A DNA stretch of 64,000 bases from Escherichia coli (GCF_003991155.1 NZ_CP031293.1); one strand, 5' to 3'. Shown: positions 1,264-6,505, counted from the stretch's first letter. Notes: generated by a model from the sequence alone, not told the origin. Program-made: numbers and translations.

Positions 1264-3006
1264 ATGATAAAACCGACGTTTTTACGCCGGGTGGCCATTG
1301 CTGCTCTGCTCTCAGGAAGTTGTTTTAGCGCCGCCGCCGCGCCTCCTGCGCCGCCCGTCTCGTATGGTGTGGAGGAAGATGTCTTCCACCCGGTACGCGC
1401 GAAACAGGGAATGGTAGCGTCTGTGGACGCCACTGCCACTCAGGTGGGGGTGGATATTCTCAAGGAGGGCGGGAATGCCGTTGATGCCGCCGTGGCGGTG
1501 GGCTACGCGCTGGCGGTAACGCATCCGCAGGCAGGGAATCTGGGCGGTGGTGGTTTTATGTTAATCCGCTCGAAAAATGGCAATACCACGGCTATCGATT
1601 TCCGCGAAATGGCACCCGCCAAAGCGACCCGCGATATGTTCCTCGATGATCAGGGCAACCCGGACAGCAAAAAATCACTCACTTCGCATCTGGCTTCCGG
1701 CACACCGGGTACGGTAGCAGGTTTCTCGCTGGCGCTGGATAAATACGGCACCATGCCGCTGAACAAAGTCGTGCAGCCCGCGTTTAAACTGGCACGCGAT
1801 GGTTTTATCGTTAACGACGCGCTGGCTGACGATCTCAAAACCTACGGTAGCGAAGTGTTGCCGAATCACGAAAACAGTAAAGCTATCTTCTGGAAAGAGG
1901 GCGAGCCGCTGAAAAAGGGCGACACGCTGGTGCAGGCGAACCTGGCAAAGAGCCTGGAGATGATTGCTGAAAACGGCCCGGACGAATTCTATAAAGGCAC
2001 GATTGCGGAACAGATCGCCCAGGAGATGCAGAAAAACGGTGGCTTGATCACTAAAGAAGATTTAGCAGCCTATAAAGCGGTCGAACGTACTCCGATAAGC
2101 GGCGATTATCGCGGGTATCAGGTTTACTCCATGCCACCGCCATCCTCCGGCGGGATCCATATCGTACAAATCCTCAATATTCTGGAAAACTTCGATATGA
2201 AGAAATACGGCTTTGGCAGCGCCGATGCGATGCAAATCATGGCAGAAGCGGAGAAATACGCCTACGCCGACCGCTCGGAATATCTTGGCGACCCGGATTT
2301 TGTCAAAGTACCGTGGCAGGCGCTGACCAATAAAGCCTATGCCAAATCTATTGCCGATCAAATTGATATCAATAAAGCGAAGCCATCCAGCGAAATTCGC
2401 CCCGGCAAGCTTGCGCCTTATGAGAGTAATCAAACTACCCATTACTCAGTGGTGGATAAAGACGGCAACGCGGTGGCGGTGACCTATACGCTGAACACCA
2501 CCTTCGGGACGGGCATTGTCGCGGGCGAGAGCGGTATTCTGCTTAATAACCAGATGGATGATTTCTCCGCCAAACCGGGCGTACCGAACGTTTACGGGCT
2601 GGTGGGCGGTGATGCCAACGCGGTTGGGCCGAACAAACGCCCGCTGTCGTCGATGTCACCAACCATTGTGGTGAAAGACGGTAAAACCTGGCTGGTTACC
2701 GGTAGCCCTGGCGGGAGTCGGATTATTACCACCGTGCTGCAAATGGTGGTGAATAGCATCGATTATGGCATGAATGTCGCCGAAGCGACCAATGCACCGC
2801 GTTTCCACCATCAGTGGTTGCCGGACGAGCTGCGTGTCGAAAAAGGGTTTAGCCCGGATACGCTCAAGCTGCTGGAAGCAAAAGGTCAGAAAGTGGCGCT
2901 GAAAGAGGCGATGGGCAGTACACAAAGCATTATGGTTGGGCCGGACGGTGAGTTGTACGGCGCATCTGACCCGCGCTCGGTGGATGATTTAACGGCGGGG
3001 TATTAA
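1264..3006 (+). CDS. ggt: gamma-glutamyltranspeptidase
   Basis: 580-aa product starting MIKPTFLRRVAIAALLSGS with a signal peptide and the conserved GGT core; ATG at 1264 is preceded by GGAGAA; the track's longer ORF from 1237 is an upstream extension. Confidence 0.95.
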   Translation: MIKPTFLRRVAIAALLSGSCFSAAAAPPAPPVSYGVEEDVFHPVRAKQGMVASVDATATQVGVDILKEGGNAVDAAVAVGYALAVTHPQAGNLGGGGFMLIRSKNGNTTAIDFREMAPAKATRDMFLDDQGNPDSKKSLTSHLASGTPGTVAGFSLALDKYGTMPLNKVVQPAFKLARDGFIVNDALADDLKTYGSEVLPNHENSKAIFWKEGEPLKKGDTLVQANLAKSLEMIAENGPDEFYKGTIAEQIAQEMQKNGGLITKEDLAAYKAVERTPISGDYRGYQVYSMPPPSSGGIHIVQILNILENFDMKKYGFGSADAMQIMAEAEKYAYADRSEYLGDPDFVKVPWQALTNKAYAKSIADQIDINKAKPSSEIRPGKLAPYESNQTTHYSVVDKDGNAVAVTYTLNTTFGTGIVAGESGILLNNQMDDFSAKPGVPNVYGLVGGDANAVGPNKRPLSSMSPTIVVKDGKTWLVTGSPGGSRIITTVLQMVVNSIDYGMNVAEATNAPRFHHQWLPDELRVEKGFSPDTLKLLEAKGQKVALKEAMGSTQSIMVGPDGELYGASDPRSVDDLTAGY

Positions 3007-3013
3007 GGTTAGC

Positions 3014-3037
3014 GGCCCTCTTAGTGGGAAGAGGGCC
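3014..3037. terminator. hairpin between the convergent ggt and yrhB 3' ends
   Basis: Perfect 9-bp inverted repeat ggccctctt / aagagggcc with a 6-nt loop; no clear U-tract, so terminator function is inferred from position only. Confidence 0.4.
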
Positions 3038-3043
3038 GTATTG

Positions 3044-3328
3044 TCAGGGCAAGCCGAAGGTAGCCTTTTTTATTTCATAATCCTGTAGATATTCTTCCAG
3101 TGGCTTTGCCGTTCCCAGAGAATGAATTTCACCACTGCCTTTATCAATAATAAAAGGTGCGTTACCAGCTAAGCGCGCGGCCTCATCTCCAGATTCAAGA
3201 AATTATTGTGATTCGAAACAGAAATACCAGCCCTGGCTAAAACGTCCATGCAGAGTGATGACGACAGGGAGATCTGCATCATCAAGGTAATGGTTCGCTT
3301 TCGCGAATGCGTCGTGATAAGTAATCAT
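3044..3328 (-). pseudogene. yrhB: yrhB-like small protein gene interrupted by an in-frame TAA at codon 42
   Basis: Minus-strand ATG at 3328 gives MITYHDAFAKANHYLDDADLPVVITLHGRFSQGWYFCFESQ, then TAA at 3203-3205; the same frame stays open for 52 more codons (FLESGDEAARLAGNAPFIIDKGSGEIHSLGTAKPLEEYLQDYEIKKATFGLP) to a stop at 3044-3046. Total length equals the 94-codon yrhB as I recall it. Confidence 0.5.
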
Positions 3329-3777
3329 AATTATAATAAATATTATTGTTGATCGTTATATTATTATTCTTGCGTTATACTTTGAGAAAAGACGCGTTCA
3401 TCTTCGTCAAAGATATTATTAAATGCTGGTTTTGAAAAAAGTTCATCGGGTAATATACAGTCACGAAATAAGTATCTGCTAATGTTTTGTGATTTCTTTT
3501 TCAGAACGTCGAACGGGATTTTCTTATTTAAGATATCAGAATCTTATGATTCGGGTGAAATTCTAACTAAATCAACATGTCACTAAAATCATCATAGCCA
3601 TTAGCTATTTCGGCTAAAATAGAGATTACATGTCTTCGGTCCATCTCACTTAAGGAGTGTAGTTCCGTTGTAAGTTTTTCCATAGCTTGCATTGCTAAGT
3701 TTCGAACAAGGAATTTTCTGCTGGTAATCTCTAAAAAGATGGCATGGTTTATAATGATTTTTGTTACCTTTTGATTA

Positions 3778-4272
3778 TTATGAACAACTGTCCATGATTT
3801 CGTTTAAGAATGAAGAGAAATCACTAAACGAACTGAATATATTTTCTGTGCCAATATTATCTCTAATTTCAAAAAAGTTATTTTTAATGTCATAAGTAAA
3901 TATTGAAATGCTATCATCCCCGATCACTAACCGTTCTTGTAGATCAGGGTTTATGAAATCATCATTATTTCTATAAAATTCATTTACGGCAAAAAGGTTT
4001 TTAACTGAAGGTTCTGGAATCGAGAGGCTGAATAATCGTAATCCATTAACTTCGAATCCATCCATTGCTCTTAAAAAAGTAAGATAATCAGGTTGATTAT
4101 TAAAGAGAATACTAACTTCATTACATAACTTCTCCAGGCAATTAGTTGGATTAGAATTAAATTTTATTTGGATTATACTTTCAATAAATGATTCCTTGAG
4201 CGGTGCTTCAAATGGATAGTCTAAATCATTCATCATTTTTTTTAATTTATTTATTTGGGTTTTAGTCATCAT
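3778..4272 (-). CDS. hypothetical 164-aa protein; candidate cognate immunity protein for the YhhZ HNH toxin (occupies the yrhA position)
   Basis: ORF immediately downstream of yhhZ on the same strand with a 4-nt ATGA start/stop overlap (4269-4272); AT-rich, acidic, no signal peptide. The immunity role is inferred from synteny and coupling only. Confidence 0.6.
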   Translation of the reverse strand: MMTKTQINKLKKMMNDLDYPFEAPLKESFIESIIQIKFNSNPTNCLEKLCNEVSILFNNQPDYLTFLRAMDGFEVNGLRLFSLSIPEPSVKNLFAVNEFYRNNDDFINPDLQERLVIGDDSISIFTYDIKNNFFEIRDNIGTENIFSSFSDFSSFLNEIMDSCS

Positions 4273-5447
4273 TTTGTGGGTTCCATAATATTTTTCATGG
4301 GAGGATAAATTGAGCCAGATGGAATGGCCCAGGGAGTGATTTTGCTTTCACCTACTAATATTCCCTTAGCTATTCGTGATTGCATGTTAGTAAAAACTTT
4401 ATGATATGGTTCGTTTTCGATTAATACTAAATTTTCGAAATCATTAGTACCACCATCATCTAGAGATAGTTTATGGTGAACATTATAATTTAGAGGAACA
4501 TTGCCCTTTCTCATTCTTAAAAGGTCTTCGGCGTTGAATCTTCCAGATGCTTCGGAGGTTTTTGCAAGTTTGATAAGAAAATTTTTTCTTACAGTTTTAT
4601 TAAACTCCTTTCGTAAGTTAGCTAAGTCTTTTGAAGGTCTCTTAATGTATATTATTTCTATTATGTCTATACCATCAAGAAGTTTTTGTTGACCTCTAAG
4701 TTTGCCTAAGTAACTATTTATTTCTGTATATGTATCAACATTAGAACGCTTTGTTAAAAGAATAGATGCTGTTGCTATCGCTATGCCCGCTGTTTTTTCA
4801 TTTAGTATTTGATCATAGCCTTTTATTGCATCTCCACCCAGTTTTTCCGCAGTATCTCTGAATCCTTCAATGTTCCCATTGTATACGCCACCAGCAGCAA
4901 GTAGCCTGCCAATAGCTTTGCTGTTTAACGTTTTGAAACGATTATTTGTTTGGTTTTTTGAATTTGGTAAAAACAAACAGTTATAATTTTCAGGGAGTGC
5001 CAAATAGCTGAACTCGGTATTTGCGATAATCTGTTGACAGAGGATAAATTCATAACTAACAGTTATTGTTTCTGTATCCAGTTGATTTTCAATGATCTGA
5101 TGATGAATAGCCGATAAAAAAGCGCCTCTTAGTTGTATATAATAATACTTTTCCCATCTACCAAATCTATTTATTCGATAGAAGTCAAATCCCATAAATA
5201 ATTGTTCATTATTGTTAATGGAATTAATAAATAATGGAGTGCTTTTATCAATTAATTTACAAAATGTTATACCATGGAACTGTGAACCAAGCCCCGTATT
5301 AGTAATACTATTTAAGAGTGAGAATGTAAATATTTCATCCTCATGCCCGCTCTGCCAGCGATTACCTGTAGACTCAGAAGTCCCACAACCTGCGGAGATG
5401 CTTCCTTGTTGTTCTCCCGTTACTGTCAGGTAAACAATATTACTCAT
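4269..5447 (-). CDS. yhhZ: Hcp-family protein with a C-terminal HNH nuclease domain (Hcp extended-toxin type, YhhZ)
   Basis: 392 aa; the N-terminal ~160 aa look Hcp1-like (MSNIVYLTVTGEQQGSISAG...), and the C-terminus carries an HNH-like motif (NYNVHHKLSLDDGGTNDFENLVLIENEPYHKVF); markedly AT-rich compared with its neighbours. Confidence 0.8.
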   Translation of the reverse strand: MSNIVYLTVTGEQQGSISAGCGTSESTGNRWQSGHEDEIFTFSLLNSITNTGLGSQFHGITFCKLIDKSTPLFINSINNNEQLFMGFDFYRINRFGRWEKYYYIQLRGAFLSAIHHQIIENQLDTETITVSYEFILCQQIIANTEFSYLALPENYNCLFLPNSKNQTNNRFKTLNSKAIGRLLAAGGVYNGNIEGFRDTAEKLGGDAIKGYDQILNEKTAGIAIATASILLTKRSNVDTYTEINSYLGKLRGQQKLLDGIDIIEIIYIKRPSKDLANLRKEFNKTVRKNFLIKLAKTSEASGRFNAEDLLRMRKGNVPLNYNVHHKLSLDDGGTNDFENLVLIENEPYHKVFTNMQSRIAKGILVGESKITPWAIPSGSIYPPMKNIMEPTK

Positions 5448-5650
5448 CCCTGAAAAGTCCTTTTATGGCATGCTATTTTATTAATGGCACTATTATGCTT
5501 GTTAATTGTTATTTATTTACTCCAGGAAATTGTAGGCGTATATATTAATAATAAAATATTACACTTTAGGACGTAATTATGAGGTAAATCTCAATATATT
5601 TATTGGGCAAATAAATACATTAAAGGAAGATATGCCGATTTTGAATGACG

Positions 5651-5677
5651 CCCTTTTTCCATCTCAGAAAAAGGGCA
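5651..5677 (-). terminator. hairpin just downstream of yhhY
   Basis: Inverted repeat gcccttttt(c) ... gaaaaagggc lying directly 3' of the yhhY stop on the minus strand. Confidence 0.5.
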
Positions 5678-5682
5678 CTATC

Positions 5683-6171
5683 TTATTTCACCCGCGCCAT
5701 ATAATACGCATCGACATATTCACCATTACGTAATGCGTACTTCTTGCCAGTCCCTTCAATCTCAAAGCCGAATTTTTTATAGACCTTAATTGCTGGCGCG
5801 TTATCGACGAACACCGTTAGCTCGATACGATCTACCCGCAACCAGTTGTCGCACATATCAATCATTTCGCGCATCAGGGCGCTGGCGACGCCGCGGTTCT
5901 TCCAGCGAGAGTCGACACAGATACCAAAATCGGCAACATGACTGCGGCGCGGGCGTTGCTGTACATCAATGGTGAGATGACCTACTACGGTTCCATCAAT
6001 ACAGGCGACGAGTTGCTTGATGCCGGGGCGTTCGGCGAGTCGCTCCTGCCACATATAGTCTGAAGGATGAGGCACCTGTAGCGTGTTGTAATACACCTCC
6101 GGCTGGGCGTGAATCTGCCTGATGGCCTCGTAATCCCGTGTTTCTGCGTGGCGTATCACTATCTCACTCAT
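5683..6171 (-). CDS. yhhY: GNAT-family N-acetyltransferase YhhY
   Basis: 162-aa product from the ATG at 6171 (MSEIVIRHAETRDYEAIRQIH...) with an AGGAA ribosome-binding site; acetyltransferase fold motifs; the track's longer ORF is an N-terminal extension. Confidence 0.9.
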   Translation of the reverse strand: MSEIVIRHAETRDYEAIRQIHAQPEVYYNTLQVPHPSDYMWQERLAERPGIKQLVACIDGTVVGHLTIDVQQRPRRSHVADFGICVDSRWKNRGVASALMREMIDMCDNWLRVDRIELTVFVDNAPAIKVYKKFGFEIEGTGKKYALRNGEYVDAYYMARVK

Positions 6172-6293: not shown

Positions 6294-6383
6294 GCGATCA
6301 GGAAGACCCTCGCGGAGAACCTGAAAGCACGACATTGCTCACATTGCTTCCAGTATTACTTAGCCAGCCGGGTGCTGGCTTTT
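6294..6383 (+). ncRNA. ryhB: RyhB small regulatory RNA (Fur-repressed, iron-sparing)
   Basis: Base-for-base match to the RyhB sequence as I recall it (GCGATCAGGAAGACCCTCGCGGAGAACCTGAAAGCACGACATTGCTCACATTGCTTCCAGTATTACTTAGCCAGCCGGGTGCTGGCTTTT), ending in a GC-rich hairpin and U-tract; sits between yhhY and yhhX as in K-12. Confidence 0.95.
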
Positions 6384-6505
6384 TTTTTGATCTTTCGTTT
6401 TCAAATTATCCACGGGAAGTGCTTGTGTTCGTTATGCGCACTCCAGTAGGAACCACGTCCGCTTTGCGCTAAGGTGTAAATAACCCCCTTAAAAAGGACG
6501 AAATC

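Follow-up and report, generated by a model that had tools for sequence, protein, structure and literature searches.

Probable remains of two orphan immunity genes downstream of the Hcp-HNH gene yhhZ in Escherichia coli

CdiI proteins are the immunity proteins of contact-dependent inhibition (CDI) loci, and orphan cdiA-CT/cdiI modules are known. Polymorphic toxin systems also include polyimmunity loci, which have a compact, same-strand and toxin-free layout (Zhang et al. 2012, PMC3482391). The E. coli gene yhhZ has been described as an Hcp fused to an HNH nuclease (PMC5714182), and such an architecture, together with cognate immunity genes, goes by the name Hcp-ET in the account of Ma et al. 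(2017) that is given in PMC6730261.

We analyzed the spacer that follows yhhZ and its neighbor yrhA in one stretch of E. coli DNA of 64 kb (hereafter, the window). The spacer very probably contains the remains of two dead orphan immunity genes at the tail of a type VI effector island. Their intact relatives belong to two small protein families, found behind toxin genes of the CdiA type and of the Hcp or Rhs type, respectively.

The AT-rich island and its 3' spacer

The genes in this part of the window are ordered ugpQ, yhhA, ggt (plus strand), yrhB (minus strand), the spacer, yrhA and yhhZ (both minus strand), yhhY, yhhX, and yhhW, and bases 3000-4300 are 100% identical to those of E. coli strain 2016C-3878. 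The yhhZ gene (4269-5447, minus strand) encodes an Hcp fused at its C-terminus to an HNH nuclease domain (TIGR03344, E 2e-32; Pfam T6SS_HCP and a weak HNH match) and would, by its architecture, be a T6SS effector of the Hcp-ET type. The neighboring yrhA gene (3778-4272, minus strand) encodes a 164-aa protein of the YrhA family (NCBIfam NF038335, E 3e-37), which is presumed to be the immunity protein for the HNH domain of YhhZ. On the other side of the spacer, yrhB (3044-3328, minus strand) is a member of the Imm35 family (K-12 YrhB protein, PF15567, E 4e-23) and is a pseudogene here, with GAA changed to TAA at codon 42 (3205-3203).

The spacer itself (3329-3777, minus strand) was described as AT-rich in a first-pass annotation of this DNA, and its G+C content is indeed 31.2% versus 51.4% for the whole window. 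It was matched in 3808 of 5426 complete E. coli genomes, every time on the chromosome. An AT-rich block of 2.3 kb and ~32% G+C (3342-5686, minus strand), comprising yhhZ, yrhA and the two gene relics described below, is present or absent as a whole among E. coli strains, with yrhB (44% G+C) outside it. Strain FXCREC180 lacks all of 3342-5686, and therefore the spacer is the 3' tail of this block. In that strain the interval between yhhY and yrhB consists of 100 bp of unrelated DNA, for which no informative match was found, and yrhB is annotated as intact, 13 bp from the island junction.

An IS1 insertion of K-12 had been placed in the spacer by the first-pass annotation. The site is vacant here, as had been stated, but alignment with K-12 places IS1E inside yrhA, at a 9-bp target duplication (GACATTAAA; 3883-3891, minus strand) that is 390 nt into the gene and 106 bp above position 3777. 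The same placement, "within the uncharacterized yrhA gene", is found in the literature (PMC12428005). Rfam 15 covariance models detected no RNA family within 3329-3777; elsewhere, RyhB was matched at 6323-6387, and a snoRNA model matched yrhA below threshold.

Two frames on the minus strand of the spacer had drawn attention, a 41-codon ORF and an open frame with no start. Stop-free runs of such length are but mildly unusual in sequence of this composition: 8.7% of 2000 dinucleotide-preserving shuffles reached the longest run and 1% the second-longest, and the opposite strand of the spacer likewise has long stop-free runs. Frame length by itself is poor evidence for a coding origin, and therefore the case for gene relics rests on homology.

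Two frames and their intact relatives

The 41-codon ORF (3567-3692, minus strand) was confirmed at exactly the position and with the sequence reported earlier. Alignment with K-12 MG1655 (NC_000913) showed that it has the same frame and locus as yrhD (b4612; Swiss-Prot P58037, 51 aa, 'uncharacterized protein'). The two products are 92% identical across 38 common codons (I22V, S35N) and fall into one 90% protein cluster. The ORF begins three codons before the K-12 yrhD start (ATG 3683-3681), because a GTG of K-12 is ATG here. The full 51-codon yrhD ORF is absent, the frame being stopped after codon 38 by TAG at 3569-3567 (minus strand; codon 39 in K-12 numbering), where K-12 has TAT and a group of strains at 92% identity has TGG. 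By this alignment, the ORF is an allele of the annotated yrhD of K-12 with a nonsense codon, and PGAP labels it in an identical strain as 'protein YrhD; incomplete; missing C-terminus' (pseudogene). The exact 45-mer that carries the TAG occurs in 357 genomes, and a further 167 genomes have it with 1-2 mismatches; the 51-codon yrhD stays open in about three quarters of the island-bearing genomes. A weak ribosome-binding site had been reported for the ORF. There is no strong site, in agreement with that report, but even a Shine-Dalgarno-like sequence is lacking before both ATG 3692 and ATG 3683.

The yrhD frame is open upstream to and past the yrhA stop, and none of eight E. coli alleles has an ATG, GTG or TTG at 3803-3693 in this frame. 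Read in this way it forms a start-less pseudogene (hereafter, relic 1; 3528-3776, minus strand) with an ancestral stop TAA at 3530-3528. As relic 1 extends upstream to the yrhA stop, the annotated yrhD is a fragment, and as its frame has no ATG, GTG or TTG upstream of 3692, this fragment is the tail of a pseudogene read from an internal ATG, i.e., the last 51 of ~82 ancestral codons. The idea that the 41-codon ORF is a decayed remnant was correct in this respect, but the ORF was already annotated as yrhD and the relic reaches further, to the yrhA stop.

YrhD, used as a tblastn query against the collected loci, weakly matched an ORF of 82 aa from a CDI locus of Leclercia. With the extended relic 1, this Leclercia protein (WP_225758228) matched at 39% identity over 56 aa without gaps (BLASTP, E 9e-12), with a score of 98 versus a shuffle maximum of 57 (0 of 5000 shuffles reached the score; z ~15). 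Comparison with a five-member profile by hhalign gave a probability of 97.2% (E 4e-11). Further homologs of ~82 aa were gathered from plasmids and one genome per species, in a scan with three closer members, and a 19-member HMM matched the piece at 3570-3803 with E 1.1e-15 (profile positions 5-68 of 84). The 83 codons of the K-12-type frame can be aligned colinearly with the family, beginning close to its start and continuing to its stop. A complete ORF with a start ~14 codons ahead of the AIFLEF motif is not found in relic 1.

The genomic context of the ~82-aa family points to immunity genes. In Photorhabdus asymbiotica, the family gene overlaps the 3' end of a CdiA gene by 14 nt, and this CdiA carries Fil_haemagg_2 (hemagglutinin repeats), DUF637, and PT-VENN domains. 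The same tip of ~115 aa (KWVDE...FDGVD...IDRK), 62-98% identical, precedes a family gene in seven further loci, i.e., those of two more Photorhabdus species, Brenneria, Azonexus, Ralstonia, and two metagenome-assembled genomes (gamma- and betaproteobacteria). In Leclercia, Pantoea, and Rahnella, the family gene is part of arrays with Imm63, Imm70 or DUF6911 genes. The gene upstream of relic 1 is yrhA and not the cognate toxin tip of the family; tblastn of the KWVDE...DRK tip against the whole 64-kb window returned nothing at E<=1, and no intact counterpart of relic 1 was found beside yrhA in any genome examined. AlphaFold2 modeled the 82-aa family as a helical bundle at moderate confidence (pLDDT 69), and Foldseek of this model against the PDB gave no match below E 2.

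The start-less frame (hereafter, relic 2; 3364-3543, minus strand) has 59 sense codons (3543-3367) and a stop (3366-3364). It had been called an open frame of ~55 codons without ATG; it is real and start-less, as no ORF of at least 20 aa begins at an ATG, GTG or TTG within it, and is slightly longer than was stated. At the yhhY-ggt site of Citrobacter youngae, an Hcp-HNH gene and a yrhA homolog are followed by an 85-aa gene, which relic 2 matched with 45% identity over 53 aa (tblastn, E 2e-12). Comparison with a 15-member family alignment by hhalign gave a probability of 97.9% (E 3e-13), and the 85-aa family HMM matched at 3367-3543 with E 8.9e-12 (positions 2-51 of 87). Relic 2 corresponds to about codons 2-52 of the family, and its DNA can be aligned colinearly with that of the Citrobacter genes between codon 1 and about codon 55. 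At the position of the family Met1 there is AAT (3526-3528, minus strand), encoding Asn in all eight E. coli alleles examined. The last ~33 codons (about 100 nt) are missing, and most of the invariant family residues are located there, including the C-terminal block of R64, R66-M67-N68, G72, E77-Y78, and G80-R83.

In C. freundii, the same chromosomal site encodes an Hcp of 417 aa, followed after a 1-nt gap by the 85-aa gene, then by Imm35 and ggt. This Hcp is 75% identical to YhhZ over residues 1-229 but differs in its tip, which shares 65% identity with that of a Budvicia Rhs protein. The gene of this Rhs protein likewise has an 85-aa family member 1 nt downstream. The E. coli order of relic 2 and yrhB mirrors that of the 85-aa gene and Imm35 in C. 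freundii. No trace of the toxin domain shared by the C. freundii Hcp and the Budvicia Rhs was found in the 64-kb window, and neither an intact 85-aa gene nor its toxin was detectable in E. coli by a DNA-level search. The sole matches of that search were yrhB (67-69% identity) and, at other Hcp loci, a small gene of wHTH-like type. The AlphaFold2 model of the 85-aa family was uninformative (pLDDT 45).

Both family HMMs were run over the 1850 stop-to-stop pieces from the six frames of the window, and the only matches were the relic 1 and relic 2 frames (next-best E 4.1 and 1.4). Homologs of both fragments, for which the first-pass annotation had allowed that there might be none anywhere, were thus found. 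A relationship to the 164-aa protein had also been considered, and neither fragment has any resemblance to YrhA, YhhZ or YrhB. In Pfam and NCBIfam, neither the relics nor their intact relatives scored above any family threshold, Imm* families included. Weak matches to SpoIISB_antitox, Topo-V, and DUF1463 were below threshold and were rejected as noise. Sequence searches of the PDB with both family profiles and both toxin tips found nothing. A fused YrhD-relic 2 query recovered E. coli fragments only, both from a word-indexed 5.8-billion set and by full HMMER over 1.84 billion representative proteins. The homologs surfaced only after upstream extension of the frame and direct reading of neighboring genomes. 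Based on gene neighborhood, we infer that both ancestral families were immunity proteins.

The relics abut each other and their neighbors closely. According to the family alignment, the start of relic 1 would fall in the last codons of yrhA. The relic 1 stop (TAA, 3530-3528) shares one base with the codon-1 equivalent of relic 2 (AAT, 3528-3526), so that the junction reads TAAAT, whereas a coupled stop and start would read TAATG. The gap between the end of relic 2 and yrhB is 36 nt.

Decay of the relics and alternative explanations

Substitutions were compared among eight alleles, those of the window, of K-12, and of six further strains, with 6-20 differences in each pair. The pN/pS ratio ranged over 0.63-1.52 in relic 1 and 0.46-2.49 in relic 2, versus 0.11-0.69 in yrhA, 0.27-0.81 in yhhZ, and 0.12-0.57 in yrhB, figures that are indicative and not precise given the few substitutions and the eight alleles. 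The ratios are near 1 in both relics, a neutral pattern, versus mostly 0.1-0.5 in yhhZ, yrhA, and yrhB. Variable sites per site amounted to 0.11 in relic 1, 0.13 in relic 2, 0.05 in yrhA, about 0.05-0.06 in yhhZ, and 0.10 in yrhB.

All eight alleles have lost the start codons of the two relics and carry the 3' deletion in relic 2, so these events predate the divergence of the lineages. Further lesions were found in particular strains. In the 92%-identity group, yrhD has TAA at codon 23, and in some of its strains the start ATG has become ATA; the 90-95% band of spacer identity holds 562 genomes. Relic 2 of K-12 has an internal stop, and strain EC556 has a 9-bp in-frame duplication. The TAG at codon 39, the TAA at codon 23 with the ATG-to-ATA change, and the stop in K-12 relic 2 are independent lesions. 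Neither relic is likely to yield a working protein today. The first-pass annotation had taken the two frames for decayed remnants of small-protein or further immunity genes, as are common behind polymorphic toxin loci, and this is supported by the colinearity of both frames with intact families in immunity position and by the pN/pS ratios.

Several other explanations of the spacer were considered. The shuffling results and the long runs on the opposite strand would also be expected if both frames were chance open frames in AT-rich non-coding DNA. This idea deserves essentially no credence given the two HMM matches (E 1e-15 and 9e-12), which are the sole ones in the six-frame scan of the window, and given the colinearity of relic 2 DNA with the Citrobacter genes; it is refuted by homology. 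The two frames could instead be halves of one gene, split by a frameshift or joined by programmed frameshifting, as they overlap end to start and a natural E. coli allele (P0001, 63 aa) fuses them via a small deletion. However, the two halves are colinear throughout with two distinct families that are unrelated to each other, the relic 1 stop coincides with the C-terminus of its family, and relic 2 begins at codon 1 of its own. No full-length fused homolog was found among the 1.84 billion representative proteins, and the two separate colinear homologies refute a single frameshifted gene, to which we likewise assign practically no probability.

More weight can be given to a present-day role of the spacer or of yrhD, and both readings were nevertheless judged unlikely, the latter more so. 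The spacer could now be chiefly regulatory, with yrhB and the island driven or silenced by an AT tract that is rich in promoters and bound by H-NS, and with the relics as passengers. The H-NS-bound 'promoter islands' given in PMC3661553 include both yhhZ and yrhA. A promoter-like site (TAGAGA-18-TATATT; 3836-3865, minus strand) is located upstream of the relics, within the yrhA 3' end, and the same hexamers have been reported as an RpoD 'constitutive promoter' for yrhD (a SELEX RNA-polymerase site), flagged H-NS (PMC3946193). Further promoter-like sites are found at 3388-3360 and 3352-3324, just upstream of yrhB, and no terminator was found between yhhZ and yrhB, either in our scan or in PMC12428005. 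However, the promoter-like sites are not more numerous than in shuffled sequence (11 observed vs 13.2 +/- 4.4 expected), and neither terminator-like nor promoter-like sites are in excess in the spacer. Per-site variation in the spacer is ~2 times that of the neighboring yhhZ and yrhA, and FXCREC180, without the island and the spacer, has a yrhB annotated as intact. As the main account of the spacer, regulation is thus rather improbable. A regulatory role, which the AT-rich spacer may have, would be compatible with a pseudogene origin and would only add a present-day function.

The other reading takes yrhD as a real functional small-protein gene, the allele in the window as a recent strain-specific knockout, and the upstream similarity as distant ancestry. 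The gene is annotated in K-12 and, by PGAP, in thousands of genomes, 68 identical copies were reported in one study (PMC3575317), and the SELEX site mentioned above is located upstream of it. We consider this distinctly unlikely in view of the missing Shine-Dalgarno sequence before the yrhD ATG and of the substitutions in the annotated 51 codons (pN/pS 0.5-2.3; 0-2 synonymous vs 2-9 non-synonymous differences per pair). The gene has also been disrupted at least three times independently (by the TAG at codon 39, by the TAA at codon 23, and by the change of the start ATG to ATA), no homolog starts at the yrhD ATG, the intact relatives all beginning ~30 codons earlier, and a literature search found no report of yrhD expression or phenotype. 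Because the 51 codons are open in most island-bearing genomes and an RNA polymerase site has been reported upstream, residual expression of the yrhD fragment is possible. Very unlikely, and less probable still than a functional yrhD in general, is that the K-12-type 51-codon yrhD is alive in a specific sense, i.e., transcribed from the site in the yrhA 3' end, started at the internal ATG, and yielding a two-helix CdiI-type fragment that binds and partly neutralizes KWVDE...DRK CdiA tips. If this were true, yrhD would be a miniaturized orphan immunity protein, and alleles such as that of the window would be true losses of protection.

A proposed history and its relation to described systems

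Returning to two dead orphan immunity genes as the preferred explanation, we propose the following history, in which the order of events and the replacement of cassettes are reconstructed from the present gene layout. The island would encode, in order, the Hcp-HNH toxin YhhZ and the immunity protein YrhA, and two more small immunity genes would once have followed yrhA head to tail, with overlapping stops and starts. The ancestor of relic 1 would have been a member of the ~82-aa helical family, which takes the cdiI position behind one CdiA toxin tip; its start has been lost in all sampled E. coli alleles, and the change of TAT to TAG shortens yrhD further in this strain. The ancestor of relic 2 would have belonged to the 85-aa family found behind an Hcp- or Rhs-borne toxin; in relic 2, Met1 is now Asn and the conserved C-terminal third is deleted. 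Such loci may diversify by exchange of toxin-tip and immunity cassettes, the immunity genes of earlier cassettes remaining downstream as orphans. Once the matching toxin is no longer met, orphan immunity genes would be expected to drift and decay.

This history would give an evolutionary explanation for yrhD, an unexplained "y-gene" of K-12, which may best be annotated as the tail of a start-less orphan immunity pseudogene. It also brings together two putative toxin-immunity pairings without a Pfam, NCBIfam or PDB relative, i.e., the CdiA tip with the 82-aa family, and the Hcp/Rhs tip with the 85-aa family. The yhhY-ggt interval would be a hot spot common to Escherichia and Citrobacter, in which Hcp tips and immunity genes are exchanged and old ones decay. 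The events themselves are ordinary gene decay at a toxin locus, and leave the accepted picture of such systems unchanged.

Among the described systems, K-12 YrhD is the same in locus and frame as the 41-codon ORF and differs by the truncation through TAG in the window. Imm35/YrhB is the next gene in the array, and in C. freundii an Imm35 gene also follows the 85-aa gene; its sequence, however, is unrelated to either relic, and it lies outside the island and is kept in island-less strains. The likeness to Hcp-ET, as far as this type is described in PMC6730261, is seen in the C. freundii counterpart, in which the Hcp part is retained and both toxin tip and immunity gene are exchanged, a polymorphic pattern of the kind described for Hcp-ETs, whereas here the relics stand after the cognate immunity gene.

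The ~82-aa family resembles CdiI in several respects. In Photorhabdus it is in the cdiI position, with an overlapping start, after a PT-VENN CdiA, in seven other loci the family gene comes after orphan copies of that CdiA's toxin tip, and its members are small, acidic, and, according to a model of moderate confidence, helical. It differs from CdiI in being outside Pfam and NCBIfam and in having no solved structure, and the E. coli locus differs in that no CdiA is found here, no fragment of the tip is present in the 64-kb window, and relic 1 has no start codon.

The comparison with polyimmunity loci covers the array as a whole. Of its four members, two are dead in every E. coli sampled and three in this strain, and the array follows a full toxin gene and does not stand alone. 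Intact, expressible members, as expected of polyimmunity loci, are not what is found at the two start-less relics or at yrhB with its internal stop. With two of four members dead, the array therefore cannot be the multi-toxin 'backup' proposed for such loci (PMC3482391). In its layout, however, it is similar to them: the YrhA family, 82-aa, 85-aa, and Imm35 genes are unrelated to each other and arranged in tandem in one orientation with minimal or overlapping gaps and no intervening toxin gene, and their content varies among E. coli strains and in Citrobacter.

Decay of the small genes in different lineages

In the window strain, the Imm35 gene yrhB (3044-3328), which adjoins the spacer, is a pseudogene, with a GAA-to-TAA change at codon 42 that creates a stop at 3203-3205. 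With yrhB dead too, three of the four small genes behind the toxin are therefore dead in this strain. Different genes of the locus decay in different lineages. For example, in the O145 strain RM9872 the Hcp-HNH toxin gene yhhZ is frameshifted and has an internal stop, yrhB is also frameshifted, and yrhD (in the window, part of a start-less remnant of the 82-aa family) is intact. Strain EC556 has a yrhD that is already truncated and that is lengthened by three residues through a tandem duplication of 9 bp (ATTTTAGCC), which keeps the reading frame; the resulting gene is annotated by PGAP as a 41-aa hypothetical protein.

Absence of the island and IS1

Strain FXCREC180 is without the entire AT-rich block (window 3342-5686), i.e., yhhZ, yrhA and both relics, and has 100 bp of unrelated sequence in its place (6343-6442 of its comparison locus, L004). 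In two other strains, SF10 and PKF8, an IS1 lies between a truncated yhhY and the final ~70 nt of the spacer, and in both the spacer remnant adjoining the IS1 ends at window position 3399/3400. This arrangement looks like an IS1-mediated deletion that took out the genes yhhZ, yrhA and yrhD together with the greater part of relic 2, the remnant of the 85-aa family. The window itself has the RyhB small RNA (6323-6387, plus strand; Rfam, 83 bits) between yhhX and yhhY, the same as in K-12.

Related tips on other carriers

Beyond Escherichia and Citrobacter, the partner of YrhA homologues is a ~380-aa DUF8093 protein rather than an Hcp fusion, and such pairs were found at unrelated chromosomal sites in Dryocola, Leclercia, Klebsiella sp. 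and a metagenome contig. This pairing suggests that the same toxin-immunity tip is carried by another vehicle.

A ~150-aa C-terminal toxin domain is common (65% identity) to an Hcp of Citrobacter freundii (L027/L028, 3746-4999) and an Rhs protein of Budvicia (L025, 3977-4999), and a gene of the 85-aa family lies directly behind it in both cases. No relatives of this domain were found in Pfam or PDB, so the domain and the 85-aa family are a candidate uncharacterised toxin-immunity pair. The last gene of the Citrobacter array before ggt encodes 78-87 aa with weak winged-helix-like matches (L011, 4807-5070; L014, 2581-2826; L027, 5600-5836). Copies with 80-82% DNA identity adjoin tssD at other loci in numerous E. 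coli genomes, that of Nissle 1917 among them.

The 82-aa family was the next gene after a conserved ~115-aa CdiA tip in every case, across eight loci (L033, 280-3993, and seven others: L023, L036, L037, L038, L040, L044 and L045). The tip had no match in Pfam. Its D...D-R-K motif is reminiscent of toxins with the restriction-endonuclease fold. Near another 82-aa family member, in Collimonas, a different CdiA carries Tox-REase-7.
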